64,000 nucleotides of DNA, taken from positions 682,001-746,000 of the forward strand of contig AP026131.1 in NCBI GenBank assembly GCA_030295235.1, read 5' to 3'. Shown piece after piece: positions 21,967-42,181 of this stretch. A model generated the notes under the pieces. That model saw only the letters and a program-made list of their open reading frames with translations, was not told the origin of the DNA and ran no database searches. The stretch's first letter is position 1. Every line of letters begins with the position of its first letter. The stretch is from Fistulifera solaris (taxonomy: Eukaryota). The position numbers were made by a program, and so were the translations under genes.

Positions 21967-22608
21967 ATGCATAATATGGATATTGAACAAGAGCGAAGGC
22001 CGTTAACCAACACGGTTGAGAATCCGTATCAAGTCAATGGCAGCAACAATACATTGGCGGCCAAAGCATTGCTAAGATTGCAACGACTGGTGTATTTGAG
22101 CTTGAGCTTGTTTGGTCTTTACAAATTACATTTTTATCGAGCTATTTTCGTTTCTGTTCGAATACGGCACGTGCCTTTTCAATGGGGCTTGGCTTTGACG
22201 ATCGGTACGTAATCAAGCAGACAGCGGTCCGTTTTTCGTGTCCTTTTTCTCTCTTGCAACCCTGCTGTGATTCATACCTTACAAATTATTGCTTCTCTAG
22301 CCATGTTCTTCATCAAGGCCTACGTGGAGCTCTATCAGGGTCGATTGCATCAGCAAAGAGTCAACTATCAAAATTTCCGACAAACGACTCATCTCTTTCT
22401 GTTGCTTTGGACTATGACGAGCGTTTGTTTCTTCGTTGCTTTATGGCCGCATTACAAATGGAATACATTCTTGGTATTGTTCTTATTGGCATTTGGCGTG
22501 GTCCTGCAATTTCTGTTGCTCGTCCCCAATCCGTGGGCGCAGAATGGTGTTGCTTTGGTGGGGTTGACATTCTTCTTACAAGATTACGCAGGCTTTGGGG
22601 CCGCCTAG
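21967..22608 (+). CDS. Multi-pass membrane protein, TMEM128-like; 1 intron (~22205-22300)
   Basis: Two hydrophobic ORFs joined by GTACGT..CTAG; several TM helices; ALWPHY.W.T motif reminiscent of TMEM128. Confidence 0.65.
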
Positions 22609-22797
22609 TTTAGTTGGAAGTTCAAGATTGATGGATATTCAAAAATATTTTGCTCTCCAATCACAGCAAGAGTTCTTAGGTCCTCTAAGCTAGTAGACAT
22701 TCTTTCATGCACACTAGGGTAAACCCGTGTAGTAAATTTCATTGAAAACTTAGCCTAGAGTGCTTGGTTGAAATTCAATTATTAAAGTACTGAGAGT

Positions 22798-23903
22798 TTA
22801 GTTTAAAGGCAACCCACTGACTCCGTCACGCTCCTCGATGGCATCCCGCAAAACGCTGGGAGTTAAGTACAAGTAATGGATGTTAAAGCCCTCGGTGACA
22901 ATTTCGACACGCACTGTCGTTAAAGTTGGTGTCAAGACTTCAATTTGCCGTGAGAAATTTGCGAACGTATCCCATTCTTCCGTGGGAGTAAATCCAACAA
23001 AGCTTTCGTAGAGCTGTGTTGTGTTCATATCGATTAAATCGAACGATCCAGCACCTTCCGGTGAAGCAATGCCAGCATGAACGTCATAAAAGCCGGCTAC
23101 TGGAATATCCCATTCGAACTCAAACCAACTGTTTAACACCAGGTTTCCAAAGTACGCTGGAACGTCGCCGTCAGCGGGATTTAGGCTAACTAAGCTCGAG
23201 TTGGTGACATCTTCGATACCCACTTTTCGATGCAAGAAAGGCTGTCGTCGATTGGTAGGAACTACCGGTGTCAAACTTCCGCTTGGCTCGCTAGGAGACA
23301 TCGTACTTGTTGTCAAAGTGGAAGTGTCGCTTTCTTCAAGGGTCCCAACGATGCTGGGCATCATGGTGAGTGTCGGTACGATTGTGCTCGGAGCTGTGCT
23401 AATTGTTGGCTTTATGCCTACTGTCGGAGTAGCGGGTGTAAGGGGATCTGGACTCGGCGGTACAACAGAGCCTGTTCCTGTCGTCGTCACCGTCGTCACA
23501 GGGGGAACGCCACTAGTCGAGTTGGTTATATTCGCATTTGATGTTGTGGTGGTCGTCGTTGCAATAAACTCAGGTGTCGCCCCAGTAGAATTAGAAATGG
23601 AACCTGTGGTATTTGTGGAAGGAGTCGCTGTTCCTGTTGCGGAGACACTGATAGATTTCGGTGGCGAGAGCCCGCTTTTGGTGCAACATTTGAAGTAGTT
23701 GTAGCTCCGAGAGGCTGCAACGCTGTTGTTGCCATCAAGGCTTCGGTGTCAGGATCGGGAGGCACTGTTGCGTTAGATGATGCGATCACGGTTTCGCCTC
23801 GCGCATCGTTCGGTAAGGAGGGTCGCAAAAAACTTTTCTGGGCGCTGCAGGAAGCCACCAAGAAGCAGAGCGCAAAAACTCTCGAAAATCTCCCCTGTTG
23901 CAT
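22798..23903 (-). CDS. Secreted CBM6-like protein A (signal peptide, long S/T/P-rich region, 1 CBM); frameshift ~23680
   Basis: MQQGRFSRVFALCFLVASCSA signal; C-terminal WFEFEWDIPVAGFYDVHAGIASPEGAGSFDL...EEWDTF...GFNIHYL. Confidence 0.8.
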
Positions 23904-24713
23904 TCCTTCACTGTTCATTGAGCTAGTAGACATATCAATTGATGCAATTTTTGCCTCCGATAGACTAGTATACGTCACTGTTCTGTGTGATTTGTTTTGC
24001 TTGTTCGATTCGATGTGCAGCGAGGCTTTCAGATGAAATGGAGTGCCGATGATGAGAACGAAAGCATAACAAAAGAAATAGGTCTTCCGACTTTTTCAAA
24101 AAATGCAAGGCTTCGGGACTTTTGTCCTTTCGGATCTTTATTGTCTTTGGCCTCCCGTCTCTGAGCTCTAAAGTATATTATAATGACTGTGACTTCTCGG
24201 TTGTGTATCTTTAGTACTACGTACTTTATACAGGAGTCATTATCACTTATCACGGACTATTTTTCCACGCGCGAAATATTCGTGACTAATGACTGCAATC
24301 CGGTCACGGCATAAATTCAAATTTCGAACTCTCTATAACCAGTTGAATTTTAGCAAACTGTAACCGGACAAATTGAATCCGAGCTTCAGTTGGAGATTTA
24401 ACTGCCAATGATCATAGCTACACCTGGGCCTCAAAGCATAGAAGCCTGGAATCTGAGGTATCTGCCTATTACGACGACAGTGTACGGGAGTAGAACGATG
24501 TCTTCGTAAATTGCTACTCCTGGTGCATCGCGACAGTGAAAGAGACGGGAAGGCTTCGGCGACCGCAGAAACGTAACTTGGACATTCTAGAGAGTCAGTG
24601 TTATAAACAAAGAATGACGAAACGGGCATTTGTAAATGGGCGTCGTGCGAGCCCAAAGCGCAGTCTTCGACAAGGAATCTGTCTTGTGCTTCTTATGATG
24701 TATTTTGTCCAAT

Positions 24714-26070
24714 TTATATGGAATATAAGTCGTTGTTGCGCTCGGCAATAGCATCTTTCAAGTCACTGGGCTCAAAGTACAACCATGCCAAATTGAACCC
24801 AGGTGCCGTAACGTTAATGGAGTAGAGATGCTCGCCTTGTTCCAGATACACTTCTTGCGTGATTCGAGTGTACTGATCCCAAGAACCGGATGCAGGAAAG
24901 TCTTCAAAAGATGCAATATATGTCAAGGACTGTTTCACGGAGGAAGTAACATTAGACAGCCCTACTGTATTTGTCGCCGTCAATGTTGATACAGGCGTTG
25001 TCGTGTTTGCCCTCGTTGGTCCTACGCCAGGCCCATTTAACGTGACCGGCGTTGCTGGTGCAGCCGTCGCTGTCATATTTGTAGGTGTCTCTTCAACAAG
25101 CATCAAATCAAAGGATCCGTCTCCATTGATACTAGCCAGACGCACGTGAACATTGTAGATTCCTGTGATGGGTACGGACAATCGAAATTGCATCCAACTC
25201 GTCCGATTCAATTGTCCGAAATTGCTGCGTCCCTCTTCGATAGACTGTTCGACTATCACGTCATCGCTGCCTGCAATGAAGTCGTCCACAGTAATGAATC
25301 TATCGAAAAGGGCAATCTGCCCGGTGCGGGAGGAGAGGGTTCAGGACGTCTGGGGTTCAAACTTGTCATCCCAGGTGCATCTCGTATGTTTCCTGCGATG
25401 AAGTAGAAAAACATCCAGTTGAAACCGCCTTCACGCACGACAGCACGCAGCTTGGCCGTATCCTGATTCAGAAAAAGTGACGGCAGAGTCATATTCGATG
25501 TGACAAGCATTGTTGCGTAGCGTTGCCACGATCCTGTTGCATTCAAATCAGTTACGTTGGCCAACAAGACGAGTTCTTCCGCTCCGGTCTCGTTTTGTGT
25601 CACATGATACAGCAAAAAAGCGCCATCACCGGAAGGACTGGAATACCGCATTTGCAATTCGTAAAAGGATCTCGTGCCTTACTGGTAGACGAGAAACCTT
25701 CTAGGTCAAATTCGAAAAAATGCGACAGTTGTAGTTCACTCAAACTTGATTGCAATTCTTTGGACTGTTCCACAGCAATCCCTGGACTTCTGTTGGTCAG
25801 CTGTTCCGTCGTAATGAAGTAAAAAGGATAATCGTGATTCTTGGGGGCCTCATTTGCTCCTGATGATGTCGTTATAGGTATTCTTGCTGTGTTTGTTGAG
25901 TTGGGAAGCAATTGGTTCGTCAAAGAAAAATTAGGACTATTTGGAGGCTTTGGAACGGAGCTGTTGGTAAAACCGGAAGAATTGCTCATCCTGAGACTCG
26001 TCGTGATCGCTGGTCTCAACGATTGAGCCAGGGTGCACCCCAGAACCATGAAGAAGTGCAATTGTTTCAT
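24714..26070 (-). CDS. Secreted CBM6-like protein B (2 CBMs); frameshifts ~25665 and ~25305
   Basis: MKQLHFFMVLGCTLAQS signal; QMRYSSPSGDGAF...ATGSWQRY...GGFNWMF; second module WMQFRLSVPITGIYNVHVRLASINGDGSF...ASGSWDQY...GFNLAWL. Confidence 0.8.
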
Positions 26071-27141
26071 GTTGCTGTGCATCTCAGGAACAAGGCGGCC
26101 CGTGACTCAGTTTCTTAGAGTTGCAGTCAGCTATGCGAAGCAACAACCACAAATTGATAAATAAGAGACCTCCTGGCTTGCTGTTGGCTTTGTGAATCGT
26201 TTATCGAATGAATGATAGCGTCCTCGGTCCTCGGTCCTCGCTCCTCGCTCTCATCTGACCGTGAAAAATCAAGGTGGGCTTAAATCGTATTTGAAATTTT
26301 GAAAAACGAATGGTACAGTACATGCTATATTCACTATTTTGCTATCTGTTGTCCTGTACCGTAGGAGAGAGGAGAGTTCAACAAAAAAGACAAAAGACAA
26401 GGCCGAGACTTTTTCTCACCTTCTAACCTTAAACCTTACTGGTATCTCCAACAACAACAAGCATTAGCTTTATACGGTACATAGAATCGCTTATCGCAAA
26501 TTAATAAATTAGCTGGCAAGTGTCAGAGATAGTCAAGAGTCGAAAATTTGGGATTTTAACACACAGCTCTCTACGGGACTAGCCTAGACGAGAGGACATA
26601 AAAGTAATCATTTCCGTTTTTGGTCATGACTGAAATCCAGTCGTGGAGAAAAGTCATATACAATTTAGGTCTATAGTCGAAGTAGGTTGAGCCTATGATT
26701 CCATGTTTGCGAGGCTTTTCGGCAATAACAAGAGGAACTTCAATCAAAAATAAATTAATCATCGTTTCTGGGTCTGAATAAGTTACAAAGCTCTTTAATG
26801 GTGGCGAATATTGAAATCGTAGGTGGGTTTATTACGCGAGAGTAACCAATCCGGGACTCATTAGCGATGCCAATGACGCGAGTCGCGAATACGTCAGTCC
26901 AGTGACGCTCCTACATACTGACAGACGATCAAGTACAGAAACCACCATACTCGACCTTCCACGTGTGGTCGAGTTGTTGACAAAGAGATGGTTGAAAGGA
27001 AAAGGATCGATCAAGGGCAAAAGAAGTTGTCATGGAATCATAGTATTTGCACACTTCCCTTGTTGATCACGACGACTTTACTTCTATCTCAATTTACCGT
27101 ATTGTTTAGGCTGATTAAGAAGCTTCCGATAGATTGTGGCA

Positions 27142-27982
27142 ATGCAGCGAAGAAGGTCTATATTTGTTTCATTTTTGCTCGTCATACTTTCGACGACGTT
27201 GGCTTTTGTTATTTCCCCTCATGCCTCTCGAAGTAACACATGCCGTCTGTATGCGACTGATCCACAAAACTTTCGAGAGGCTGAAGTATTGGGGTTGAAA
27301 TATATGCAAGACGGAGAATATGAGAAGGCACTGAACGGTGAGTGAAACGATCGTGCGTCGGATTCGTCAGAATCAAAAGAAAGGTAATTGAGACTTACAG
27401 AACCCTCCTTGAATACATCCTGACGTCTTTCGAATTCCATTTTTTAATCATTGTATTTGCATACAACCGGGCTTTCTCGTGACATTTAATCGGATTCACA
27501 AATCACCATACACGGTGAATTTTTCACCATTTTGCAGCATTTCAAAAGGATTGAAATTACCGGGAAGCCGTGTCGATGTAGTGAGAACACAGCGCGTGTC
27601 GGGTCCGTCGCCAGTCGGTGGTGCAAAGGGAGGTACCAACTCGGAAACGGTGCAATCGTTGGATGAATTTGAAATTCAAGCGGCGTATTACAATATGGCT
27701 TGTGCACAGGCTCAACTGGAACGATACGACGACGCGTTAGCGTCTCTACGGGTCGCACTGGAAAATGGTTTTGATAATTTGGCCACAGTGCGATCCGACC
27801 CAGACCTGGCGATATTACCACAAACAGATGCAGCAGCTAAATTTGACGCTTTATTGGAAGAGTTTGAATCTAAAAGCAAAAACAACGGAGAAGGCGGCGG
27901 TTTCTTTGGCCTATTTCAATCAAAAAGAAGTAAGACTCTCGCAATCTCGCAATCTCGCACCACTTCTTTTGAAATCGTATGA
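27142..27982 (+). CDS. Plastid-targeted TPR protein resembling the TPR half of plant MET1/ZKT; intron 27338-27537
   Basis: Signal ending TTLA-FV; AAYYNMACAQAQL...ALENGFDNLATVRSDPDL...FDALL. Confidence 0.75.
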
Positions 27983-28775
27983 GCGATTTCAAGATCTGTT
28001 GGCGCCATTTGATCGCTCGCGCAGAAAGTTTAGAAGCAAAATGCACGCGTGAGTGTTCTAATCTACTTGTCAGTCTTACCACAGACTATGTCTTTATAGG
28101 ACCAACTTTAGGCTTTGCCATTGTTGAATTGTGTTTGTCGTGTAAACCCTTTTTATGATGCGTTAGTACATGTTGGTTGCCCGCCTTACTGGTGGAAGAA
28201 AACAAGTAAGCCTTTATTCTCTAGAGTCAAAGTCATCTTAATAAGTTAGGAAACCGAATCAAATTCGCAGAAAATCTGGGGTGGCATTACTTCGAAATGG
28301 ACAGACACTCAATGTTCATGTTCAAGTTCAATGATTTCTTCACGTTGACAAAAAATCAGGAGATGTAGTGTTTTCAAGTATCCAGAAAATAGGGGTGTGG
28401 TGTCCTCACGCACGTGTCTAGGAATGTGGGCGCGTGATATTTACACGTTTCCAGCAAAATATGGGTATTTTGTTTTCACGTTCCCAGAAAATGTGGGCGT
28501 GACCGAGAGAACAGGAGGAGACGCCACAAACGCAACAAAAAAAAACATAAAAAGATGACTCAAGTCATTGACTTTTGCAATAACAGTAGCCTTCACAAAG
28601 TTATGAGGCCTACAAGTATAGAAATGGAAAGCCTACAGCCCCCTGTGGTCTTCTTGCACCGAATCAATTAGAAGTGATGTTCATCGCTCATCACAAACAA
28701 AAAAAAATTCGTTGACTTTACCTTTTAATGCTTTCTTAAAAACGTGCTCTTCTGAGTAAAGTAAGAGGAACCAAT

Positions 28776-30487
28776 ATGTGGGTAAAAGAAGCAATGGTTT
28801 GGACTGTTGCGTCTTTGTTAGTCGTCCAAGGTACAACGACGAACGACGAAACAACGAGGAATTTACAATGGGGACAAGGTGTAAATGGTATCTTTTACTC
28901 GACCATTGCAGCTGTCGACTATACTGCCATAAGTGGCGCTATCGCACAGTCGTCGTCTGAAGGAATTGAAAGCATCGGATTTTTGAACGTCGGCGACTCT
29001 CTCACTTACCAAGCAACATTGCCCGTCGCGGGCACGTATCAATTTCTGGCGCGCGTGTCCACGCCCGACGGCACCGGATCGTTTGCTGTGTTCAATCAGG
29101 ATACTTCTGAAAGACTTGTCAAAGTTACAGAGCTTCCTGTCACTGATAGTTGGGAAGAGTGGGCGACAAAGAGTGCCATTCTTTCATTGCCCACAGGTAC
29201 CGTCAACCTAAAGATTGAAATCATCGAGCCAAGTTTCACATTATTGTGGCTGTCTTTGCAACTAATGGAAGCAGGGTCGCCAACTCTGGCACCCACCACT
29301 CGAGCAGTGACCCCAACTCCTACATCGCTATCGCTGACCCGAGCACCAAGTCTAGCCGTCGCCGAGACTCCATCCGCACTCCCAACTACAGTCGCACCCT
29401 CGGCTCTCGTTCCCGATCAACGTCCTACCATGCTTCCTCCACCTCCAACATTACAGACTGAATTGTGTTTAACATCTACGCTGGCTATGGAATACCTTCT
29501 GATGAAGGATGTTGACAGCAATGCAGTCGATGGAACTATGACGTTGCGCGCAAACAGTTCGGTTTTGTTTTCCATGACTGTGCCCACCAGCGGCACGTAC
29601 CGTACTTGTTGCAAATGACCGTCGTACCTCCACTCACAGGGACTTTAAAACTAGTAGAGTTACAAACAGAAGAACAATATGCGATTGTTGAGCGCACGGA
29701 AGCGACTGCTAAGGACGAGCTCAAATGGGGCTTCGTCAATAGCGTCGTAGCACTGTCCAGCGGGACGCATTTGATCCACATGCGTAGTATCTTGGGCAAC
29801 TGGACTTTATCAGCATTGTGTCTACAAAACATTGATTCGAGTAACACGTGTGCGAGTGAAAATATCATCATGTCGTCAGAACCCTTTGTTCAGGAAGAAG
29901 CAGAGAGTATTTTTGGTGCACAACAAGAACCTGTGGTTGTCGAGCAGCAACCAGAAGAGGCTGCCGTTGAAGAGCAACCAGTAGGTATGGGAGAACAGCC
30001 GGGCGATGTCACGCTCGAGCCATCTGACTTTTTAAGTGCACCGAGCGAAGATGACATTCTCGGCGAACTGTCATTCGTTACCGAGGAAACAAACGAAGGA
30101 ACATCCGAGTGCACCGTCTTCATTAGTGCGAATAACTATACTGCAATGGATGGCATTTCAATGCTCGACTCTCTCACAAACACTGGTGCGATCGGTTTCC
30201 TTGACCCTGGGGACTGGTTCTCATACACTCTAAATGTCCCTCAAGCTGACACTTACGAACTGGATATGCGAGTAGCCAGCCCCTTTGGTGAAGGCGCCTT
30301 TGAAGTTATCGACATGGTGACCCAAGATGTGTACGCAACGGTGGACCGTTTGCCTATCACACAAAGTTGGGAGGCATGGGAAATTGCCTTTACGTTAGTG
30401 ACTTTGCGAAGCGGTCCCATTTCCTTGATGATTCGTGTATTGAAAGAAGGCTGGAATATGGAGTCCTTGTGCTTGAAGGCTATTTAA
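28776..30487 (+). CDS. Secreted CBM6-like protein C (3 CBMs); frameshift ~29600
   Basis: Signal, TTRNLQWG, IGFLNVGDSLTYQATLPVAGTY..RVSTPDG..VTDSWEEW; last module IGFLDPGDWFSYTLNVPQADTY..RVASPFGEG..GWNMESLCL. Confidence 0.85.
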
Positions 30488-30632
30488 TTACAATCAAGGG
30501 CTACATGCTATTGCTAACAATAAAAAAATAACGATTATTTTCGTATAAATTCACTATGTTTTAGTTCTTTTTCTTTATAAACTGCGACACGGGTTTGAAA
30601 AAAAGCCTGGAATTCTTTCATCGGCCGCTTCC

Positions 30633-31433
30633 TTATTTGCGCAAACGCAACAGCAATCCCTTGTTCGATTTGATCTTCTTTTGTAACTGGATCAATCCGT
30701 ACAAAAGAGCTTCCGCGGTCGGAGGACATCCGGGCACATAAATGTCCACAGGGACAATCCTATCACAGCCACGCACAATGGCGTAACTGTAATGATAATA
30801 GCCACCTCCATTTGCACAAGAACCCATCGAAACGACCCAACGCGGTTCCGGCATCTGATCGTACACTTTCCTGAGCGCTGGGGCCATTTTATTAGTTAAC
30901 GTGCCTTTAGAAAGAAACGTACAATGAGTGCCGAAGGAAACGATGTCTCAAAATCATCAAAACCTACCAGCGACAATCATTACATCGGATTGACGGGGAC
31001 TAGCGCGAAACACCATACCAAATCGTTCCATATCGTATCGCGATGCGGCAGCGTGCATCATTTCGACGGCACAGCAAGCCAAACCGAACGTCATGGGCCA
31101 CAAACTGCCCTTGCGGGCCCAGTTGACTAGATCATCGACTCGAGAAATAGCGTATTCGACGTTGTCTGCGACAGGAACATTGCCACCGCCCGTAAGCATT
31201 TCTTCAACATTGTCAAGTTTTCCCAGCTATTAATCAAACGTTAGAACGAACAATTTAATGAGTAAGCAGTTGGAACGAATAAAGAAAATCAGGTAGAAAC
31301 AGGCAAGAAAATCGCCGACACGTACCGCGGAAGTTTGACTTTGTGCCGTTCCCGCCATGGCACGCGACGCCAAGTAGCACGATCCTTTGCATCGCAAAGA
31401 TGAGTTTAACATTAATTTGTGTGCAGCCAACAT
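30633..31433 (-). CDS. NDUFS7: Mitochondrial complex I PSST subunit (NuoB homologue), 3 exons
   Basis: [69 protein letters not shown]-terminal transit-peptide-like exon. Confidence 0.97.
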
Positions 31434-31824
31434 GATTGATATTACAAACAATAAATATACGATTGTTATTTTTGTTATTTTGTTGCTGCATCGTTGTTGT
31501 TGTCGTGTTGTGTGTTGTTGACGCGGCTGCTTGAAGCGACGGACGAACGAATAACGTGACTCGTTGAATCACGATCTGACACGTCACACAGAAATGATGT
31601 CTTTCTTCCTCCGGTTACGAATCGGCACACTGCATTGAATAGTAGTATCCGTCGCCAATTTCGGCCAATGAACTATCATGACATTCTACTCTTTTGTATC
31701 GCAATTTTCTTATGGGTTTCTGAAGGAAGCCCAAGCCAAAAATGATAGGCTTCGGGCGACATGTGCCAATTTCTCGGTCACATTCATGTTATTTCAAACA
31801 CATCTTTTGTGAAAGAGAACCACC

Positions 31825-33156
31825 ATGGCCGGGCTACTCTCAGAAAACAAAAGACAAGCCATGCTTCAGATCCTTTCGATACTTGCTTTCTGGTGCGCGT
31901 CCTCTGCGACAGCGCACAGCGAACGCGACTTGAGTTGGGGCTCACACAATGGAATGTTTTACTCGCTCATTTCCGCCACCAATTACGTCGAGTCGACCGG
32001 AGCGGTCGAAACAATTACTACACCAGATGGTATTCGGGCGGTCGGCTTTTTGGATCCGGGTGATACAATGGGTTACGCGTTGGATGTTCCTATCGCTGGT
32101 ATGTATTCGTTACTGCTCCATGTTGCCAGTCCGGCTGGCGAAGGTTCTTTGAACGTAGAGAATGCCGAAACAACGGAAGTCTATGCTACCTTTGACGAAT
32201 TGCCATCTTCAAATGGAAACTGGTCGTATTATCAAACTACGGGCCAGAATATCACATTGCCGCAAGGTCAGCTTATCTTGCAAGTGAGTGTCCTCGAATC
32301 TGGATTCAATTTGATGTGGCTCAGCCTTGAACAGCTTGCGGAGGAACCTTTTGAGCCCTCCGAATCCGCCGCACCTGTAGCACCAGTAGCTCCGGTTCCC
32401 ACTGAACCGGTTGTCCCCGTTCCGACCGAGCCAGTTGCTCCAGTTCCGACGGAACCGGTTGTGCCAGTTCCGACGGAACCGGTTACATCTTCTCCCTCGC
32501 AAGTACAGACGACGGCTCCGACCATGGCACAAACACTAGCTCCGACTGTAAAACAAACACCAGCCGTGACCCCTGCACCTACCATGAAACAAACTCCAGC
32601 GGTAACCCCCGCCCCGACGACGAAACAGACTCAGGCGCCGACGACTGCTCCAACGATGAAGCAAACGCCAGCCTTAACGCCTGCTCCGACAGCATTGACG
32701 CTAACTGAAACAAACCCTCCCGTTGTAACGGAACTCTCCATGTACACTGAGCAATGCTTTTCGGCTGGAAACTTCTTGTCGTATCAAGGATGCGACGAAT
32801 TGCCGCGGGGTGTTGGTTTTGTGGGACCCGTTGTTACTTCAACAATGATTACCTATCCCTTTCAAGTGCCTGTCGCGGGAGTATATCTGCTGCAGATGAG
32901 TGTGCAGGGAATGGGAGGAGTGAATGTGACTTGCGAATCAACTGGAAAGCAATACGCGTACATCGAGTCTCTTCCAACGTATCGAACCACGAACACCACT
33001 GACGTCTGGTATACTGTGTCCAGCGTCATGTCATTAGACGTGGGAAGCCACAAGTTGCAAGTCGAAGCCGTAGTAGGAGGATGGAGTATCCAAACCTTGT
33101 GTTTGCTTCCCGTAGCATCGCATTTCGTGAGCTGCTCGGTCGATGCAGCACGCTAG
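31825..33156 (+). CDS. Secreted CBM6-like protein D (2 CBMs, PVVPVPTE and TPAPTMKQ repeats); intact single ORF
   Basis: Signal, SERDLSWGSHNG, VGFLDPGDTMGYALDVPIAGMY..VASPAGEG..GFNLMWL. Confidence 0.88.
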   Translation: MAGLLSENKRQAMLQILSILAFWCASSATAHSERDLSWGSHNGMFYSLISATNYVESTGAVETITTPDGIRAVGFLDPGDTMGYALDVPIAGMYSLLLHVASPAGEGSLNVENAETTEVYATFDELPSSNGNWSYYQTTGQNITLPQGQLILQVSVLESGFNLMWLSLEQLAEEPFEPSESAAPVAPVAPVPTEPVVPVPTEPVAPVPTEPVVPVPTEPVTSSPSQVQTTAPTMAQTLAPTVKQTPAVTPAPTMKQTPAVTPAPTTKQTQAPTTAPTMKQTPALTPAPTALTLTETNPPVVTELSMYTEQCFSAGNFLSYQGCDELPRGVGFVGPVVTSTMITYPFQVPVAGVYLLQMSVQGMGGVNVTCESTGKQYAYIESLPTYRTTNTTDVWYTVSSVMSLDVGSHKLQVEAVVGGWSIQTLCLLPVASHFVSCSVDAAR

Positions 33157-33516
33157 AGAGATACGTCACAAGTCACAAGGACGTCACAAGAATTTGACGC
33201 TCTCGATTCATTCTTTACTGTTTACAGTATCAAATCCTAAATACTAAATACGGAGTAACTTCTAACTTCTAACTTCTTCTCAAAAGTCATTTAGTCATTA
33301 TTTTCATAACAGTACTAAAGAGATCGAGAATGGACAAGTAAGTTGACGTAATTTTTCAGTCATCGAAGAATACGAGGTTTTATTGTTACCGCGAGTATTA
33401 TCTTCGACGATCGACAATCGGCATGCATTCGTTCAATCCACAATCCTCTTCCATTCAAGTAATTGACTGTTTTCCCACCCAATTCGAAAGCTCCACCTCC
33501 AAAATCGATCTTAACA

Positions 33517-35570
33517 ATGAGGCTTCTGGCAACGAGGATATTGTTATCGCTCTTTTGTTATTGGAAAGTGCGATGGCCGCCGAGTGGACTGCGCCTTTCA
33601 ACAAGGACGAGGACAATTGCGAGGCAGAGAAGAGCGTAAACTCAGGTGGGGACTCCATGATGGTCTCTTTTACAATGTCGTCTTAGCTGCGGATTACATT
33701 TCTGTGCAAGGAGATATCTCCATTCAAGAATCATCGTCTTTGGATGATGGACTTCCGTATGTGGCATACCTTGACGCTGGCGACATACTCACATACCAAG
33801 CTGTTTTGCAAACAACTGGAAAATATAGCCTTAAACTGAGAATCGCAAGTCCTTTTGGTGAGGGTGGCATTCAACTGCGAAATCCCCAAAACGATTCTCA
33901 AATATACGCTTCCATTGATACGTTGCCCGCCTCGGGCGATTGGAATTCGTGGCAAACAGTGGAAGCGACATTCGAATCTGCTAAGCCTCAAGTTCGATCT
34001 CAATTTGGTCGTTGTTGAGGCAGGTTACAATCTGCTTTGGTTATCCCTGGAACTGCTCGAAGAAACCGATAGTACCGCAAAGCTATCAGAGCCTCCTGTC
34101 ACTGCCCCTGATGTTGAGCCCCCTCCAACAACTTCTCACATCAATAGCACCTGCATGGTGTCTTTGGGCGCTGATGAATACACGACAGCCGATGAAGGAG
34201 CGCGACTGTCACCCGAAAACAATACGTTGGAGCTAAATACTAGCTCGTGGGCTGTTTATAGCATTCAAGTTCCAGCGGATGGAAAGTATATATGGCAAAT
34301 GAGAATGACTCTCACTACTCCCACGGGCACCTTGAATCTGACGAATGCCGAAACCGAAGACCTTTATGCATCAATCAAAGAATCAACCCTTGATTCTTGG
34401 CGCGATATCAATGTTGTCCTTCTTATGGCAGCAGGAATGCATAATGTGAAGATCCATATTGTGGAAGGAACGTGGACACTATCCTCTGTATGCCTTGACG
34501 AAATCGATTTCGAGAATGTGCACTATCTTGAGTCCATAAACATCAACACTAGAGCTCCCACTATTTTTATTGAAGCCACCCCGACAGTAGCACCGATGGT
34601 ATCACTAAACGATCCGTCGACAGCCACCATGACACCAACAAGTTCGGCGAAAGCTGCAGCGACAGCAGCACCAACGGTATTACTAAATGATCCGTCGACA
34701 GTCACCATGGCACCAACAAGTTCGGCGCAAGCTGCAGCGACATCAGCACCGACTGTAACATCTTCACAGTCAAACAATTCAAAAACCATGACACCAACAA
34801 CCCCGACAGAAGCTGCACCCACATCAACACCAGTTGTAACATATTCCGAGTCGAGTAATGCAGGTATCATGAGTTCAGCGAGCCCGACAAAAGGTGCACC
34901 AAAAGCAAATCCAACATCGACGGCGTCGAGCTATACAGGCACTATGCCCCCAACGAGCCCCATCGAAGACCTACCAACAATGGCACCGGTCGTGGTGACT
35001 ATGAAATCAAGCATTACCAGCACCATGGCCCCCACCAGTTCGTTACAACTTTTCACAACAGCGCCATCGGTCGAAGCGCCGACACAAGCCATGAACAGCT
35101 CCCAGCCAGAGGCGCCCGCCGCTTCGTCGAATGACACGACCTCCTTAGAATCCCAGGAAATCGCCTTCCAATTTTCAGCCGACGAAGCATCTTCCATGTA
35201 CGGAGCTGTTTTAGAAGAGGCCAGTAGCGAGAATGCAGCTTGCATAACACAACTCGATGCGTTTGATTGGGTCCGTTATCCCATGTCGACAATCGTCGGG
35301 GGCAACTATACTATGGAAATTCGCGTATCCAGCGCTTCGGGAAAAGGCGCCTTTGACTTAATCGACTATGGCACGGGAATTACTTACACTTCGATGGAAA
35401 CAATTCCAGCCACAGGTGAGGGCAATTGGGAAACCGTCAGTATCAATGTCACTTTGCCGGAAGGCGACGTCCATTTGATGATCCGTGTACGTGAGGGCGG
35501 TTGGATGTATACGTGGATTCGGTTTAGCGAAAATTTAGCGCCCAAATATAATATCATCATCACAGGCTAG
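33517..35570 (+). CDS. Secreted CBM6-like protein E (3 CBMs, T/A/P-rich linker); apparent frameshifts near the 5' end and ~33985
   Basis: ERKLRWGLHDG, VAYLDAGDILTY..RIASPFGEG..ASGDWNSWQTV; last module DAFDWVRY..RVSSASGKG..GGWMYTWIRF. Confidence 0.82.
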
Positions 35571-36217
35571 CCTTTGTAATCTGTAAAGAGGCGCACATGA
35601 TTCGACACTCCATTGCAGTTACTGCCTGGTTTGAATCCGTATGCCGGAATGTTCGATAAAATAAGAAGTTTATTACAGCACCTGTGTTTTTCCACATTCT
35701 TTATGAAAGTGTGTCTGCCTCAGTTCATTCTTCATTTGTTGCTATTACCATGTATGAATTATGACACAAGAGAGAAAAGCTTTCGAGTTGCGATGAAACG
35801 CGAAACGCGGTGCTAAAAATAATTCGTCGTGATTGAAAGTCAGTCGGATCTGGACGACTCTACTGGACTCGCCTTCCGCCTACACTTGGGACTATAGTAG
35901 ACGGCATGACCCGCGACAAAAAAGGCCTAAATAGCTAAATAGTACGTAGAGGTCTAATAATGACAAATCGGAGCACAGAACTACTGTATACTTAATAATG
36001 TATGTAAGGTTGATACTTGTAGGTCCTGTCTTTGGCGTAAATAAGATAAACGGTACTGCGATGATTGAGTGGACTTCTCTATTTACCATGATCTTTGGGC
36101 CTAATCTACGATTATGCGTATGCGAAACGCGAAACGCTTCCGTCCTCCATCGAGACTCGAGACAACTCGACATTTTTCTCTTCATTTTTCACCGCACGCC
36201 ACAAAGAGACAATAATC

Positions 36218-38350
36218 ATGAATAGCAAGAAAAATATGCAAGCAATCGCACGCCTTTTGCTGCTGGCTGCACTAATACCATCCTCTCAGGGCTCGACGCC
36301 ATTTCTACGGCGGCGTTTACAAGAGAGCGCTTGCCACTTTGGCTGCCTTGAACCAAGGGTCGCGTCGATCGCCGGAACGGCTTTTGTCTTGCAAAATGGA
36401 GGCATTGTGGATGAAATCGAGCATTTTATCACACTCCAAACCAGCGACTGGGTTGTGTATAGTGTGACAGTTCCCTCCGACGGTTTTTATTTGTTGCAAA
36501 CGCAGCTTTCTTTCGACAACGGGTCGTCGCTGAGCATATCCGATCCCCAATCATCCAAGCAGTACGCCACGATTAATGGGAATCCCACTCACACCAACAG
36601 TATCGTGTCCTTAAGATCAGGTACCCAGCAAGTAAGACTATATGCGGAACAGGGCCCGATACAAGTGAAATCTCTTCGTGTCGACATTATCGATTCCATG
36701 GACGAACATGGTTATCACGATCCGCCGTCCGACCAAAATTCTGAGACCGACGTTAGCAGTACCGATGGTGATTCGGAAACGGATGAAGGCACGCTTGATG
36801 AGCCACCATTACAGGCTAAGGAGGAGGTTGACGGCGACACAAGTGAGACGGAAAGTAACGATTTCGACGAAACCTCTATTGAGGTTGAGTCATCCCCAGT
36901 CACGGAAAATGAAGGCAACTCCAGCAATTCAACTAGTGCATCCAATTCCTCATCTACTGCTATTTCTTCCTTACAACTGAAACAACCTGCTATTGTTATG
37001 ATGACAGCTTCCAGCTACACATCGATGAACGGTATCGAACTTGATAACACGACCCACCATGGTCTTCCTCCTACGACGCCACTTGATGCGAATGATTCAA
37101 TTTTATATTCTGTGACAATACCGAGAGCTGGTATGTATGAAATGAAAATGAGTGTTCATAGTCTCGCTGGAGAAGGCTCGTTTGATGTTGTGGATGACGT
37201 TACGGGATTTTTGTACACCTCTGTCAGCGGTTTACCGACTGCATTAAATGCAACTAGTTGGGACACGGTATCAGCGGAGATAACTCTAGTGAGCGGGCCG
37301 CAGCAATTAAGAATCAACGTAACTGAAGGTGGATGGTCCTACACGTGGATAAGACTGACAGAAAGATTGGATCAAAATAGCTCGGGCACTACTGATCAAC
37401 CGTCAGATCAGACACAGTCCAACACCACGTCAGACCTGGCTCAACAGCCTCCAACGCCAGAGGATCCAGCACAAGCGGCGACACCAGCAGATCCAGCGCA
37501 AGTCGCAACACCAGCTGACCCTGCACAAGCTGCGACCCCAGCAAATCCAGCGCAAGCAGCAACACCAGCAGATCCAGCACAAGCGACAGCACCAGCTGAC
37601 CCGGCACAAGCTGCAACACCAGCAATTCCAGCGCAAGAGGCAACCCCGGCTGACCCAGCTCAAGCGGCAACCCCAGCAAATCCAGCGCAAGCAGCAACCC
37701 CGAGTGACCCTGCACAAGCGGCAACCCCAGAAAATCCAGCGCAAGCAGCAACCCCGGCTGACCCGGCTCAAGCGACAACACCAGCAAATCCAGCACAAGC
37801 AGCAACCCCGAGTGACCCTGCACAAGCGGCAACCCCAGCAAATCCAGCACAAGCGGCAACACCAGCGGACCCAGCGCAAGCAGCGAACCCAGCGGATCCA
37901 TCGGATCAGCCTTCGACTCCGTCGAGTTCAACAGAATTACAGTCCACGTCACTTGAACCAGATCCACTTTTAGCAAGCTGTGACGCTGTTATAGAGGCCG
38001 CAAAATATGACACGATGTCAGGTATCCAAGTACAAGGGTCAACTGAAAGCATGGACAACATTGGATGGTTGGATCCTGGAGATTGGGTGGAGTACTCTGT
38101 CTCCATTCCGTCAGCGGGCAGCTATACCATGGACTTCCGTGTCGCATCGCCCGAAGGCTGGGGAAGCTTTGATGTGCTCAATGGTGGCGCAGCACTGACA
38201 TCAATCCCAACTCTGCCAAAATCAAGCGGATGGCAAGACTGGAAGACCGTACCTCGTAAAGTTTCACTGTCATCGGGTCCTACCAATCTTCGTATCAACA
38301 TTTTGAATGGAGGTTTCAATTTAGTCTGGATATGCTTGACTCGCGCGTAA
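36218..38350 (+). CDS. Secreted CBM6-like protein F (3 CBMs, acidic stretch, 16 x 9-aa DPAQAATPA repeat); intact ORF
   Basis: Signal, FLRRRLQ; C-terminal IGWLDPGDWVEYSVSIPSAGSY..RVASPEG..SGWQDWKTV..GGFNLVWICL. Confidence 0.9.
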   Translation: MNSKKNMQAIARLLLLAALIPSSQGSTPFLRRRLQESACHFGCLEPRVASIAGTAFVLQNGGIVDEIEHFITLQTSDWVVYSVTVPSDGFYLLQTQLSFDNGSSLSISDPQSSKQYATINGNPTHTNSIVSLRSGTQQVRLYAEQGPIQVKSLRVDIIDSMDEHGYHDPPSDQNSETDVSSTDGDSETDEGTLDEPPLQAKEEVDGDTSETESNDFDETSIEVESSPVTENEGNSSNSTSASNSSSTAISSLQLKQPAIVMMTASSYTSMNGIELDNTTHHGLPPTTPLDANDSILYSVTIPRAGMYEMKMSVHSLAGEGSFDVVDDVTGFLYTSVSGLPTALNATSWDTVSAEITLVSGPQQLRINVTEGGWSYTWIRLTERLDQNSSGTTDQPSDQTQSNTTSDLAQQPPTPEDPAQAATPADPAQVATPADPAQAATPANPAQAATPADPAQATAPADPAQAATPAIPAQEATPADPAQAATPANPAQAATPSDPAQAATPENPAQAATPADPAQATTPANPAQAATPSDPAQAATPANPAQAATPADPAQAANPADPSDQPSTPSSSTELQSTSLEPDPLLASCDAVIEAAKYDTMSGIQVQGSTESMDNIGWLDPGDWVEYSVSIPSAGSYTMDFRVASPEGWGSFDVLNGGAALTSIPTLPKSSGWQDWKTVPRKVSLSSGPTNLRINILNGGFNLVWICLTRA
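37463..37894 (+). repeat. 27 bp coding tandem repeat, 16 copies
   Basis: Encodes [DN]PAQAATP[ASE] x16. Confidence 0.92.
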
Positions 38351-38480
38351 CATAAGCCAAGCTCTAAAATCACTGCGTTGAATCTTCATGTAATTATAAC
38401 TTGATGGGTGATTTGCGCTCGACTTTTTCACCGTAAAAAAGTGCATAGCGAATTCTACCACTCACACACAATAGCATGTT

Positions 38481-40919
38481 TTATCGCACTGCCGTGAAAC
38501 ACAACCAGGCTAAATTCCAGCCACCGTCGGATATACTGATGCGAAGCGTTTGTGGTCCAGCGGGAAGTATGACATCCGTTGCGTCGGTGTACCAACTTTG
38601 CCATCCACCCGACGGAGTCAGAGAATCGACTGAACCATACACTTGACTCATGTCTTGGGATGTCACTTGAAAGCTTCCGCCTCCATCGGGGGACGCGATA
38701 CGATAACTCATCCTATAGGTTCCTGCTGCCGGCAAATTGACGTCATACTCCAACCAGTCACCAGGGTCAAACCATCCCACATTCGTGAGTCCTTCTGTCG
38801 ATGCCTCCGAGTCGACGCCGGACATTGCGCGGTAATTGTTCGCGGGGATGACAACATCACATGAGCCCGCGTCGGAGGAAGGCGAAGAGGGATGGGAGGG
38901 AGCTGAAGGATCAGCAGGCGATGCTGGTAAGGCTGGGTTGGAGGGCGACGCGGGCAGAGCTGGGTTGGAGGGTGATGCTGGAAGAGCTGGGTTTGCGGGA
39001 GATGCCGGAAGAGCTGGGTCGGCAGGCTCTGCGGGCAAAGCAGGATTGGCGGGCCCTGTGGGCAAGGCCGGGTCAGAAGGCGCTGCCGGTGAACTGGGTA
39101 ATGCTGGTGCACTTGGATTTCCCGGAACACCTGAATCCGACGGCCCAGGAACGCCTGTTGTTGGCAAGCCAGGTGCACTAGGCTCTCCACTATCAGGGGG
39201 GACATTACCTCCGTTATTCGGGACGCCCGGTGCTCCAGCATTAAGCACTCCACTGTTAGGACTGCTTGGAGTTCCACTATTTGGCACTCCATTATTGGGA
39301 CCGCTAAGAGTTCCACTATTTGGCACTCCATTATCGGGGCCGCTCGGCAATCCATTATTCGGCGCACCGTTGTTTGGACCGCTCGGTAGTCCATTATTCG
39401 GTACACCCGGACCATTAGGAAATCCATTACTTGGAACACCATTGTTCGGTCCACTTGGAAATCCACTATTTGGCGTGCCGCTATTTGGAGTCGCACCAGG
39501 GTTCACATTACTTCCACTGCCTGTGCCTGCATTTGGATACGGTGCCGCGGGATAACCACCATTGCTTCCACCGCCTGTCCCAACATTTGGATACGGCATC
39601 GTGGGATAACCACCAACATTACTTCCACTACCTGCATTTTGATACGGTGCGGCGGGGTAGCCCCCGGTACTTCCACTACCATTTCCTCCATAATGATAAC
39701 CACCACCACTGTTGTAGATGTGATTGTGAACATGAATTTCGGGTTGTGTAAGTCCTCCACAACCGCAACCTCCGCCACAACCACAGCCTTCGCTAGAGCC
39801 CTGACTCGACTCCACGTCTTGTAAGCACAAAGACGCCAAGTTCCAACATCCGTTCAATACGCGCACTTGCAAGGTATGCGATCCTGCAGAAAGATCCATT
39901 ACCGTATTCACATTCGTCCACATTCGAGAGTCTCGAATTTTCTCCACTACGGCGTATTGTTGATTGGTTTCCATATCCCTTACTTCCAACGCTCCACCAC
40001 CCTGTGTATCCATAGCACTCAATTGAAGCATGTAGGGCCCATCGTACGGTGCCGTGATCGTATACGCGGCCCAGTCACTTTCATACAATTTGATAAAATC
40101 CGTGTTTTCCGTCACGTCGCTCCCATTCATCGAGATGTAATTAACCGCGGCCACCGATTCCAAGCACACGTCTTGTGGAATGGGCATTAGGGTCGAATTC
40201 TGTTCTAACAAAGTAGGCGCGGGTGTTGCCGAATTTTGTTCGGAAACAGTGGGCACGGTCGTGGATACATTATTCGGCTCCGGCAAAGTCGGCTCGGCGG
40301 TCGATGCATTTTGCAACGACGCATCGGGTAATGACGAAGTTGCGTTTTGCGATGGCGAATCCAGCGAGACGGAAGACTCTTCCAGTGATGGCGTATCGAG
40401 TTGCTGAAGTGAGAGCCATTGCAAATCCCATCCGGATTCGATCACTTCTATTTTCATCACCGATGTTCCTTCCGGTAGCGTAATATTTCTTGATACAACC
40501 GACCACTCATTCCAGTCTCCCGTCACGGGTAACTCATCAATCGTATCGTAAATTTCATCCGTCGCCATGTTCTTGACCGATAGTGACCCTTCTCCGTCAG
40601 GGCTAGCTACATACATTTGTAATTGATACACAGCAGTCGCCGGCAAATCGATGCGATACGCCACATAATCTCCAGGATCGAGTTGCCCCACAGTTCGTAA
40701 TCCTTCCAACGATGCCTCGTTGACGGTGACACCGTTCATGAGCGTGAAATCGGCCGCCGAGACGAGCGTGAAGAATTGATCATTGTGACTGCCGAGTGAT
40801 AGTCTTCGGTCACGACGATTTTTTGTCGAGAAATTCTCTCCTCGGGCTGCGGATGCCACAAGAGCGGCAGTTACTAGAGCACTGCAAAGCCATATTCGCA
40901 TTACGAAGCTTCTTGTCAT
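38481..40919 (-). CDS. Secreted CBM6-like protein G (3 CBMs; Gly/Tyr, Gly/Pro/Asn and PANPALPAS repeats); intact ORF
   Basis: Signal, RDRRLSLGSHND, VGQLDPGDYVAYRIDLP..VTGDWNEW; C-terminal VGWFDPGDWLEYDVNLPAAGTY..RIASPDGGG..SGGWQSW..GGWNLAWLCF. Confidence 0.9.
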   Translation of the reverse strand: MTRSFVMRIWLCSALVTAALVASAARGENFSTKNRRDRRLSLGSHNDQFFTLVSAADFTLMNGVTVNEASLEGLRTVGQLDPGDYVAYRIDLPATAVYQLQMYVASPDGEGSLSVKNMATDEIYDTIDELPVTGDWNEWSVVSRNITLPEGTSVMKIEVIESGWDLQWLSLQQLDTPSLEESSVSLDSPSQNATSSLPDASLQNASTAEPTLPEPNNVSTTVPTVSEQNSATPAPTLLEQNSTLMPIPQDVCLESVAAVNYISMNGSDVTENTDFIKLYESDWAAYTITAPYDGPYMLQLSAMDTQGGGALEVRDMETNQQYAVVEKIRDSRMWTNVNTVMDLSAGSHTLQVRVLNGCWNLASLCLQDVESSQGSSEGCGCGGGCGCGGLTQPEIHVHNHIYNSGGGYHYGGNGSGSTGGYPAAPYQNAGSGSNVGGYPTMPYPNVGTGGGSNGGYPAAPYPNAGTGSGSNVNPGATPNSGTPNSGFPSGPNNGVPSNGFPNGPGVPNNGLPSGPNNGAPNNGLPSGPDNGVPNSGTLSGPNNGVPNSGTPSSPNSGVLNAGAPGVPNNGGNVPPDSGEPSAPGLPTTGVPGPSDSGVPGNPSAPALPSSPAAPSDPALPTGPANPALPAEPADPALPASPANPALPASPSNPALPASPSNPALPASPADPSAPSHPSSPSSDAGSCDVVIPANNYRAMSGVDSEASTEGLTNVGWFDPGDWLEYDVNLPAAGTYRMSYRIASPDGGGSFQVTSQDMSQVYGSVDSLTPSGGWQSWYTDATDVILPAGPQTLRISISDGGWNLAWLCFTAVR

Positions 40920-41258
40920 TGTTTCGGGTCTTTAATGTGCTTCTTTTCACTTGTTTGATGCAAGCAAAAGTTTCGGACAAAAGTTGCCTCCAATAGGCTT
41001 CTTCCGTTCAAGCAGGTTCAAGAAAGAATTTGGTGATGCATGACTGCTTTTTACTGTAGAGTCCGAAGAGACATAGGGCGTGATTGACAAAAATTGTGAC
41101 CGTGTTTCCGTTGCATCTGTCACACTCCTCTGTAAGGTAGTCTCGTTTCCCAGTAAAAGTACTCTCTGAAAACCGATCGGCAAACAACAAACCATAATAA
41201 ACGGCGGCACTCACTTTTCTCGCTTTCTCGCAAAATCGTTTGCTTGTTAACCAAGAAG

Positions 41259-42181
41259 ATGATGACACGAATAATAAGATTTCTTCTATTATCCACCATT
41301 GTATCAAGAGCAGCATCCTTTCAGGTTGGAGTCGCTGTCATTCCAGGAGTTGATTCGGAGCGTCCATCCAAAGTGTATCAAGATGCGTATTTTGTGAAAG
41401 AAATCACGACGACGACGGATGAGACGCAATTACTGGTGGGCGTCTTGGATGGACACGGCAAAGATGGGCACATTGTTTCGCAGTTTTGTGCCGAGCGATT
41501 GCCTTTAATCGTAGAAACGCCAAAGGGCCGCCTCCGGTGGATTTTCTCGAACAACTTTACACACTCGGTCGAGCCACTCGCGACAACAATTCGCTTCATC
41601 CGAAACACCAAATCTTGGTCGATGCGTTTCATCGCGTCCATTACGATGCGATGCAAAGTCCAACCTGCCCGGCCGGACGTAGTGGCACTACATGTGTGGT
41701 TTGCTGGATTGATTCAGATGAAGTGCACGTGGCATACGTAGGAGACTCGCGGGCCATTCTCATCGACGGGGATACCATTACGCCGTGGGCCACGGAAACG
41801 ACTGTGCGTCAACTACCGAAAGAAAAAGAACGCATTGACGCCAGTGAAGGTCGCATCGATGGAAATGGAAATGTATGGTACGGACCGATAGCCATTGCCA
41901 TGACGCGTGCACTGGGAGACGCTGCTATGTTGCGTGCCGGCATATTACCCACCCCCATCACGAAAACGTTCGCACGCAAGAAAGGGACCGTCTTGGTTCT
42001 AGCAACCGACGGTATTTGGGACCAATTGTCGAATGATCAAGTGGCGGAATTGGTAAAAAGCAACATGCCGAATACATCCTTGGCTGCCGACGCCATAAGC
42101 AAATGCTCAAGACAAAAATGGATAGGAGACTTCATCGAAGAAAAAGCAGATGATATTACATGCTTAGTGGTGACTTTGTGA
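41259..42181 (+). CDS. PP2C/PPM protein phosphatase with signal-like N terminus; frameshift ~41515
   Basis: YQDA, GVLDGHG, SGTTC, YVGDSRA, AMTRALGD, LATDGIWD, DDIT. Confidence 0.92.

Follow-up and report, generated by a model that had tools for sequence, protein, structure and literature searches.

What can secreted proteins that consist of little else than sugar-binding modules contribute to the life of a diatom? The question is raised by seven genes, A to G, which occupy positions 22798-40919 of a 64,000-nucleotide stretch of Fistulifera solaris DNA (contig AP026131.1, positions 682,001 to 746,000; the entire stretch is here termed the window). A preliminary description of this locus, made from the sequence alone, had recognized a cluster encoding secreted CBM6-like multimodule proteins free of catalytic domains, and had proposed that these cross-link or recognize glycans. 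The genes are intronless and appear as long open reading frames (ORFs) on both strands. With about even confidence, our analysis points to a function in non-catalytic, multivalent binding or cross-linking of extracellular glycans, exerted by a diatom-lineage family that would descend from a bacterial protein combining a GH5 glucanase domain with CBM6 modules. This role is favoured because the proteins are built for secretion, a canonical module is kept per protein (in C to G), the modules are constrained in sequence, and in the wider family the fold has repeatedly outlasted catalysis. Gene structures, identity and fold of the modules, the lack of catalytic and transmembrane domains, the stronger conservation of modules than of linkers and the loss of GH5 catalytic residues in paralogues are shown; that the proteins are secreted and glycosylated, what they bind, that they cross-link it and that the family came from bacteria is what we infer.

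The modules are CBM6, both by sequence and by fold. Pfam CBM_6 matched nine of the 12 ORF pieces of the cluster, eight of them above the gathering score of 28.9 bits (40-149 bits), with gene A staying below the cutoff at 19 bits and three pieces giving no match; the only other Pfam families matched (E 0.01 or better), CBM_35 and CBM_35_2, belong to the same clan. With a profile of 13 modules, 11 solved sequences were matched, the best single module among them being CmCBM6-2 of Cellvibrio mixtus (1uxz, E 1.7e-22). Structures were modelled with AlphaFold for two of the 17 modules, G2 and G3 (table 1). In Foldseek searches, the G3 model was closest to 1uy0/1uxz (root-mean-square deviation 1.3 Å over 97 columns, 42% identity), followed by other CBM6 and CBM35 structures, and for G2, whose binding site is degenerate, the best match of the model was likewise 1uxz (TM score 0.79). 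The solved modules nearest to the G3 model bind beta-1,3/1,4-glucans, xylan, laminarin or agarose. A profile built iteratively from the window's own modules gave 20 matches, corresponding to 17 modules, all within 22864-40757 and none elsewhere among the 892 six-frame ORFs of at least 40 amino acids (aa) in the whole window. Thus, the seven genes, their module counts and positions, and the assignment to CBM6, for which hidden Markov model and structure checks had been suggested, were all borne out. Across 13 intact modules, identity to G3 in the alignment is 20-48%.

Pfam found no catalytic family in the 12 ORF pieces, so that these are not carbohydrate-binding modules in the strict CAZy sense, and specifically no GH5 domain, i.e. 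the domain that a GH5+CBM6 endoglucanase would carry. As a statement about the cluster, freedom from catalytic domains therefore stood; it does not extend to paralogues in the same species, which carry a GH5 domain, in most cases a dead one. The history of the family can be read from these paralogues. In two eukaryote-type database proteins, P0001 and P0040, a GH5 domain lies between CBM6 modules, and a search with this type of GH5 domain retrieved 87 proteins. The combination of GH5 and CBM6 occurs in F. solaris in FisN_32Lh014 (74% identical), FisN_32Hh014 (73%), FisN_23Lh173 and FisN_16Lh017, and also in ACA910_020384 of Epithemia clementina. Diatom-type GH5 domains share about 40% identity with those of Bacteroidota. 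In the GH5 tree, 15 of the 87 tips, the diatom-type ones, form a single clade (support 0.961), whose sister group consists of a protein from a Fibrobacterales metagenome-assembled genome and an unnamed one (support of the parent node 1.0); next outward are Bacteroidota-type endoglucanases with type IX tails. That the nearest relatives in this sample are bacterial GH5+CBM6 endoglucanases points to descent of the diatom family from such an enzyme.

Two conserved glutamates, located in NEP and G-E-S-G motifs, are kept together in all 72 of the other, bacterial-type proteins, but both are absent from 13 of the 15 diatom-type domains (P0180, P0182, P0195, P0183-P0186, P0189, P0191, P0197, P0181, P0001 and P0040), where SAV, NSV and similar triplets replace NEP and THV, KPG and similar ones replace GES. 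We take these glutamates to be the acid/base and the nucleophile of GH5. Within the diatom-type clade the pair is kept only by FisN_23Lh173 and the Epithemia protein, both of which branch basally. The glutamate-less domains thus look like a conserved subfamily of pseudo-enzymes, and the contrast between 13 of 15 dead and 72 of 72 intact domains suggests that in this lineage a glycanase of bacterial type, probably obtained through gene transfer, gave rise to non-catalytic glycan binders. The simplest reading would be that a bacterial GH5+CBM6 glucanase entered an ancestral raphid diatom, that a single loss of catalysis was followed by diversification of the dead form, and that CBM6 modules spread on their own as well, cluster A-G being an example. 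As a side observation, the 1264-aa GenBank model of P0180 (FisN_32Lh014) carries a piece of a DEAD-box helicase N-terminal to the CBM6-GH5 protein and probably represents two genes merged by annotation.

The CBM6 modules themselves are less informative about descent. At E <=0.001, the module profile matched 8,837 among 1.84 billion proteins. The top 30 matches, which were scanned for domains, are mostly bacterial proteins with Por_Secre_tail, PKD, Ig or catalytic domains, and a few consist of CBM6 only. A smaller, eukaryote-like set (P0008, P0009, P0010, P0019, P0143, P0176 and others) shows signal peptides and Thr/Pro linkers. F3 and G3, the most bacterial-like modules of the cluster, share 42-49% identity with bacterial modules. 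In a tree of 338 tips, all 62 eukaryote-type modules fell into one clade (support 0.866). In a tree of 435 tips, however, the largest pure clade held 56 of 89, with F3/G3, A1 and some others standing apart, which counts against a single origin of the modules; with a domain this short, the trees would be compatible with one acquisition of CBM6 as well as with several. Two further searches were uninformative on relatives: in the ESM Atlas only bacterial CBM6 clusters were returned, all with scores below 0.9, and a search with the whole protein G gave seven bacterial-type matches among 7,999 scored candidates, in which linker words are suspected to dominate.

If these modules bind glycans, which of them are equipped to do so? 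The usual sugar-binding site of CBM6 is cleft A, which is formed by loops between the two sheets and employs two aromatic residues and an Asn (Tyr34, Trp92 and Asn120 in CtCBM6); a second site, cleft B, is located on the face of a sheet (PMC10284105, excerpt). Counting along the alignment with 1uxz and along that of all 17 modules identified a full cleft-A triad in five modules (C3, D1, E1, F3 and G3), i.e. one in each of the proteins C to G. Another five have a partial triad, with Trp and Asn in A1, B1 and B2, Phe/Trp/Thr in C1 and Gln/Trp/Asp in G1. At the position aligned with Trp39 of 1uxz, presumably a cleft-B residue, nine of the 17 modules have Trp and two more Tyr or Phe. A different type of variation is a Cys before the first strand combined with a Cys in the last strand, which is found in seven modules (C2, C3, D2, E2, F3, G2 and G3); because first and last strands are adjacent in the CBM6 fold, a disulfide bond between them seems likely. 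A tail motif, PSxLxDAIxER, follows A1 and is shared with B2 and P0143.

Contigs from four public runs (X1-X4), aligned to 22000-41500 of the window, differ from it by single bases in homopolymers at 23675, 23947, 27543, 27921, 28699, 33300, 33552, 33595, 33978, 40943 and 40965, each difference being backed by every covering run (two to four runs per site); five further indels are not in this list. The 11 listed differences were applied by script before ORFs were read. Homopolymer errors in the assembly make real ORFs A and E appear broken: with 23675 +T and 23947 +T, A becomes a single ORF of 378 aa, and with 33552 +T, 33595 +T and 33978 -1, E becomes one of 684 aa with three modules. Three or four runs agree at each of these sites, and P0019, the E orthologue of another organism, is uninterrupted across the break position in E. 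No correction is needed for D (443 aa), F (710 aa, counted from the first ATG) and G (812 aa), which are intact. B lies in three frames, with both breaks at TTTT runs (~25661-25664 and ~25300) where an extra T restores module-like sequence; probably these are assembly homopolymer errors as well, at sites not among the indels listed. C is a different case, as its frameshift is genuine: a tandem duplication of CGTAC at 29596-29605 shifts the frame within module C2, leaving ORFs of 280 and 290 aa, and is spanned gap-free by an X1 contig (27715-30804, record 3) and an X4 contig (29491-29763, record 24), which makes C a truncated gene or a young pseudogene. The GenBank model of C (GAX29259.1, P0162) bypasses the break by an intron that is absent from all contigs aligned. 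Thus, of the gene structures first described, the number of seven stood, while A, E and probably B turned out to be split by homopolymer errors, C to be frameshifted and two unrelated genes to be interleaved.

Neither these contigs nor the ORF reading revealed an intron in A to G, and the contigs showed no joints to other exons, in agreement with the expectation that the modules are not spliced to a catalytic domain. X3 and X4 contigs skip GT..AG introns of two neighbouring genes (22203-22300 and 31226-31326), so that these runs include RNA-derived sequence, and they give colinear partial cover of A, C, D, E, F and G, with one low-depth exception in the F linker. The stretch 24604-28509, which includes gene B, has zero X3/X4 cover and carries no information on expression. 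The exception in F is at 36708 in the acidic linker, where an X3 contig has a loose end and X4 a low-depth joint (36708 to 36827), which may reflect a shorter linker of the homeologue rather than an intron. At 23180, one X3 contig omits 2 nt near its end, possibly also of homeologue origin.

At all seven N-termini, small residues come after a short hydrophobic segment, in the manner of a signal peptide. Beyond the N-terminus, none of A, C, D, E, F or G had a Kyte-Doolittle window of at least 1.6, so that a membrane anchor is lacking; on both counts the initial description proved right, B having been assessed by eye. Outside the modules, Pro, Thr and Ser together make up 24-44% of the residues and Lys 0.2-2.4%. 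C and F have strongly acidic, Ser-rich stretches, the F linker contains a 9-aa unit repeated 16.6 times (37452-37900), and additional tandem-repeat arrays are found in the linkers of D and E and likewise in G, where they include a GCGCGG motif. An R-x-L sequence follows the signal peptide directly before the first module in five of the seven proteins (C-G), and in C, D, E and G the first modules share the lead-in R-x-L-x-W/L-G. The modules are better conserved than what connects them. Between F and its homeologue P0013 the modules are 87, 86 and 96% identical and the rest 74%, and between D and its homeologue P0056 93 and 95% versus 91%; across species, the values are 78 and 81% versus 64% for D and P0176, and 62, 62 and 71% versus 45% for E and P0019, with many linker residues being unalignable in these comparisons. 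In degenerate modules, conservation is no lower than in the others.

How might such proteins operate? Each would enter the secretory pathway as a chain of one to three CBM6 beta-sandwich modules on low-complexity linkers that are Thr/Ser/Pro-rich, acidic or repetitive. Catalysis would have been abandoned in two ways, by absence of GH5 as in the cluster, or by keeping GH5 with both catalytic glutamates replaced as in most paralogues. The cleft-A clamp, an aromatic pair plus Asn in C3, D1, E1, F3 and G3, could grip a beta-glycan chain, with the long and probably O-glycosylated linkers keeping the modules spaced, such that a single protein may tie polysaccharide chains together or to a wall, be it within the diatom's own wall, its capsule or its adhesive matrix. 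As ligands, beta-1,3-glucan or callose, wall polymers that contain xylose, or EPS (extracellular polymeric substances) are candidates. Diatom walls are described as a sulfated glucuronomannan in which xylose and fucose vary, and EPS as a heteropolysaccharide (PMC4584364, excerpt). More tentatively, and as a possibility we rate well below the binding function as such, the raphid-diatom lineage may have captured a glucanase, disabled or discarded the enzyme and multiplied the module into secreted, mucin-like, multivalent lectins that would build or cross-link its own extracellular polysaccharide, be it capsule, adhesive or wall casing, with two subtypes, cleft-A-competent and Cys-flanked degenerate modules, dividing glycan grip from spacing or protein contacts. 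If true, a bacterial degradative module would have become a eukaryotic matrix-assembly protein.

Several observations weigh against a glycan-binding role of this family as a whole. The equivalent of Trp92 is lost from seven of the 17 modules (C2, D2, E2, E3, F1, F2 and G2), and 12 do not have the full triad, so that most may not bind sugar in the known manner; the preliminary description is to be qualified accordingly, canonical cleft-A residues being kept in five modules only. Moreover, the retention of the catalytic residues in FisN_23Lh173 and the Epithemia protein makes a degradative role of the wider family possible, the frameshift in C indicates that the cluster is not uniformly maintained, and signal peptides were assessed by eye and hydropathy alone.

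The strongest alternative, which we nonetheless consider rather unlikely, takes up this degradative potential. In their benthic or wetland habitat, the proteins could help in feeding on foreign polysaccharides by binding beta-glucan or xylan of plants, algae or bacteria, and could concentrate or loosen this substrate for the still-active GH5+CBM6 enzyme and for other secreted hydrolases. Not only are the relatives of the family bacterial endoglucanases and both catalytic glutamates retained in FisN_23Lh173, but the nearest solved module, CmCBM6-2, also belongs to a degradative enzyme, and transfer of bacterial xylanases, glucanases and glucosidases to diatoms is reported in excerpts of a preprint. 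Yet the death of 13 of the 15 diatom-type GH5 domains points away from degradation, Pfam detected no hydrolase gene in the cluster, and long mucin-like linkers, together with Cys-flanked modules, suggest a structural part rather than one accessory to an enzyme.

Could the proteins instead be part of the frustule, to which they would be brought along with wall material and where they would tie polysaccharide of the organic casing to silica or other wall proteins, with acidic or Gly/Tyr/Asn-rich linkers as a second binding surface? Precursors of diatom wall proteins are canonically cleaved by a protease at RXL (PMC5501833, excerpt), of which the R-x-L behind the signal peptide of proteins C to G is reminiscent; the strongly acidic, Ser-rich linkers of F and C would fit as well. 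Three residues are, however, too short to weigh much and are here part of the conserved lead-in R-x-L-x-W-G, and the low Lys content of the linkers means that Lys clusters of the silaffin or cingulin type are absent. We consider this explanation improbable, and assign a slightly smaller likelihood still to recognition or defence lectins that attach to glycans on the surface of bacteria, oomycetes or chytrids, either agglutinating or sensing them. Multivalent stand-alone sugar-binding modules would suit this purpose, as would a fast-evolving, tandemly duplicated family with variable binding-site residues, but neither Pfam nor hydropathy revealed a signalling or membrane-anchoring part. Finally, that the genes are decaying, functionless relics of a transferred enzyme gene is very improbable, since despite the frameshift in C and the loss of cleft-A residues from most modules, long ORFs are intact in five or six cases, six genes are covered by RNA-like contigs, and modules, including degenerate ones, are conserved above the linkers between homeologues and between species.

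Binding or cross-linking of glycans by non-catalytic proteins thus being the function we favour, how does the cluster compare with known systems? CmCBM6-2 of the C. mixtus endoglucanase/lichenase 5A (1UXZ, 1UY0) is the best match in sequence and fold, and when counted on the profile alignment, G3 and F3 retain the equivalents of its Tyr33, Trp92, Asn121 and Trp39. CmCBM6-2, however, forms part of a bacterial protein with an active GH5, whereas the cluster modules are enzyme-free, eukaryotic, connected by mucin-like linkers and often Cys-flanked, with cleft A altered in 12 of 17. Multi-CBM6 proteins of Bacteroidota also contain several copies, and some of them (e.g. P0026, P0029 and P0033) resemble the cluster in having no Pfam catalytic domain; these type IX proteins differ by their Por_Secre_tail, PKD or Ig domains and have no comparable Thr/Ser/Pro mucin-like linkers. 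The GH5+CBM6 paralogues of F. solaris and Epithemia share with the cluster signal peptides and low-complexity linkers, here Pro/Lys/Thr-rich, and their N-terminal CBM6 falls into a clade with most window modules, the GH5 domain being the difference.

In diatoms, adhesive trail proteins offer the nearest functional analogy. The Trailins, Ca5609 and CaFAP1 of Craspedostauros australis are modular, secreted and Pro/Thr/Ser-rich, are expected to be O-glycosylated and contain a domain acquired from bacteria, and their localization to trails is shown in the same study (10.1101/2023.03.06.531300, excerpt). That domain is choice-of-anchor A or GDPH rather than CBM6, and the term 'CBM' does not occur in the preprint text; conversely, A to G share Pro/Thr/Ser-rich linkers with the trail proteins but have neither choice-of-anchor A nor GDPH, as Pfam gave CBM families only. 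In Nitzschia sing1, a bacterial alginate lyase with CBM32 has been duplicated, rearranged in tandem and neofunctionalized, with the catalytic PL7 domain being central and the function being feeding (PMC11960938, excerpt), whereas in the F. solaris family catalysis is lost. Silaffin- or cingulin-type precursors have a signal peptide, RXL and Lys/Ser-rich sequences; in the cluster, a signal peptide plus R-x-L occurs in five of the seven proteins, and Lys accounts for 0.2-2.4% of linker residues.

What would be new here is CBM6 in the form of stand-alone secreted modules in a diatom, in a family that seems to have moved from glycanase to binder. The F. solaris genome contains further CBM6-only proteins (FisN_5H/Lh050, 8H/Lh004 and 8H/Lh123), with copy number at the genome level being based on protein-database matches only. 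Like the genes of the cluster, these are labelled hypothetical in GenBank and carry the automatic name 'CBM6 domain-containing protein' in UniProt, so that the family is not new to databases; a description of diatom-encoded CBM6 proteins was not found in the literature searched, a search that did not extend to the F. solaris genome paper, and to this extent the suggestion of an undescribed family stands. Judged by title and abstract, the papers listed on CBM6 and diatoms treat bacterial enzymes or other subjects. Mentions of CBM6 in PMC4316629 were rejected, as they refer to CBM63. In the dbCAN table of a survey of carbohydrate-active enzymes (PMC11960938, supplementary file 9), in which F. 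solaris is not included, the count of CBM6 is zero for T. pseudonana, F. cylindrus, P. tricornutum, S. robusta, N. inconspicua, Nitzschia Nitz4 and N. putrida, and one gene's worth is listed for N. sing1. Being rare in this survey, CBM6 may mark a particular benthic lifestyle. The history from glycanase to binders is traceable, which makes the family a clean case of a change from enzyme to lectin after a probable gene transfer. To our knowledge, it is poorly understood how diatoms organize the polysaccharides of adhesives, capsules and wall casings, and not many of the proteins that take part are known; a lineage-specific secreted family made up only of sugar-binding modules thus provides concrete candidates.

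Table 1. Genes, CBM6 modules and other features of the window. Residue triplets are those at the three cleft-A positions.
Feature	Position	Strand	Remarks
Gene A	22798..23932	-	Signal peptide, ~200 aa Thr/Ser/Pro-rich region, one C-terminal CBM6
A1	22864..23214	-	Asn/Trp/Asn; Pfam CBM_6 19 bits, below cutoff
Gene B	24714..26082	-	Signal peptide, Ser/Thr/Asn-rich region, B1, B2
B1	25400..25821	-	Glu/Trp/Asn; split by frame break near 25661
B2	24774..25283	-	Gln/Trp/Asn; ~50 aa Thr/Pro-rich loop insertion
Gene C	28776..30487	+	Signal peptide, C1, C2, C3; frameshifted
C1	28911..29258	+	Phe/Trp/Thr
C2	29484..29824	+	Cys-flanked, cleft A lost, frameshifted
CGTAC tandem duplication	29596..29605	+	Frameshift in C2
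C3	30128..30475	+	Cys-flanked; full triad Phe/Trp/Asn
Gene D	31825..33156	+	Signal peptide, D1, Pro/Thr/Ala repeat linker, D2
D1	31975..32328	+	Full triad Phe/Trp/Asn
D2	32764..33105	+	Cys-flanked, cleft A lost
Gene E	33517..35570	+	Signal peptide, E1, E2, long Thr/Ser/Pro/Ala linker, E3
E1	33686..34049	+	Full triad Tyr/Trp/Asn
E2	34185..34496	+	Cys-flanked, cleft A lost
E3	35178..35525	+	Cleft A lost
Gene F	36218..38350	+	Signal peptide, F1, acidic Ser/Asp/Glu linker, F2, 9-aa repeats, F3
F1	36395..36679	+	Cleft A lost, Trp92 loop deleted
F2	37007..37357	+	Cleft A lost
F3	37997..38338	+	Cys-flanked; full triad Trp/Trp/Asn
Gene G	38481..40919	-	Signal peptide, G1, linker, G2, GCGCGG motif, Gly/Tyr/Pro/Asn and Pro/Ala/Ser repeats, G3
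G1	40407..40757	-	Gln/Trp/Asp
G2	39822..40148	-	Cys-flanked, cleft A lost; AlphaFold pLDDT 89
G3	38496..38843	-	Cys-flanked; full triad Trp/Trp/Asn; AlphaFold pLDDT 84
Hybrid histidine kinase	1-2019	+	HisKA, HATPase_c, receiver domain; extends past window start
Globin-domain ORF	16744-17448	+	Pfam Globin E 5e-12
Globin-domain ORF	18118-18804	-	Pfam Globin E 2.7e-14; divergently placed relative to the 16744-17448 ORF
ORF unrelated to the CBM6 family	27413-27979		Between B and C
NDUFS7/PSST-like complex I subunit gene	~30600-31450	-	Spliced, well covered; between C and D

The genomic setting is that of the nucleus of a raphid diatom. Database matches of C, D and F point to F. solaris, in line with the diatom host supposed at first: D is 100% identical to P0175, the ORF downstream of the frameshift in C shares 99.7% identity with P0140, which clusters with GAX29259.1 of F. 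solaris, and F and D have copies in FisN_16Lh306 (76% identical) and FisN_16Lh309 (87%), evidently the other homeologue. The flanking genes are eukaryotic and encode, besides the histidine kinase and the two globins, a PP2C, an MCM8-like protein, a P-type ATPase, a Tic22 homologue, an MFS transporter, an ankyrin protein and an aldo-keto reductase. Such ordinary eukaryotic flanks, including the Tic22 homologue, indicate that the cluster is not bacterial contamination. Its G+C content is 0.455-0.523, with a range of 0.39-0.52 for the whole window.

Of the two unrelated genes inside the cluster, the NDUFS7-like one on the minus strand has an intron at 31227-31325 and at least one further break in its ORF. 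The DNA-like runs X1 and X2 show loose ends and joints at 26624-26654 and 28370-28501, e.g. from 26651 to 28484, which suggests that another copy, either homeologue or haplotype, lacks ~1.8 kb between B and C, with the ORF at 27413-27979, or differs there. X2 is a wetland metagenome run that contains 0.81 of the sampled words of the region, in contigs that are mostly at least 99% identical to it; being near-identical, these contigs indicate that the same or a very close diatom is present in a wetland-type habitat.

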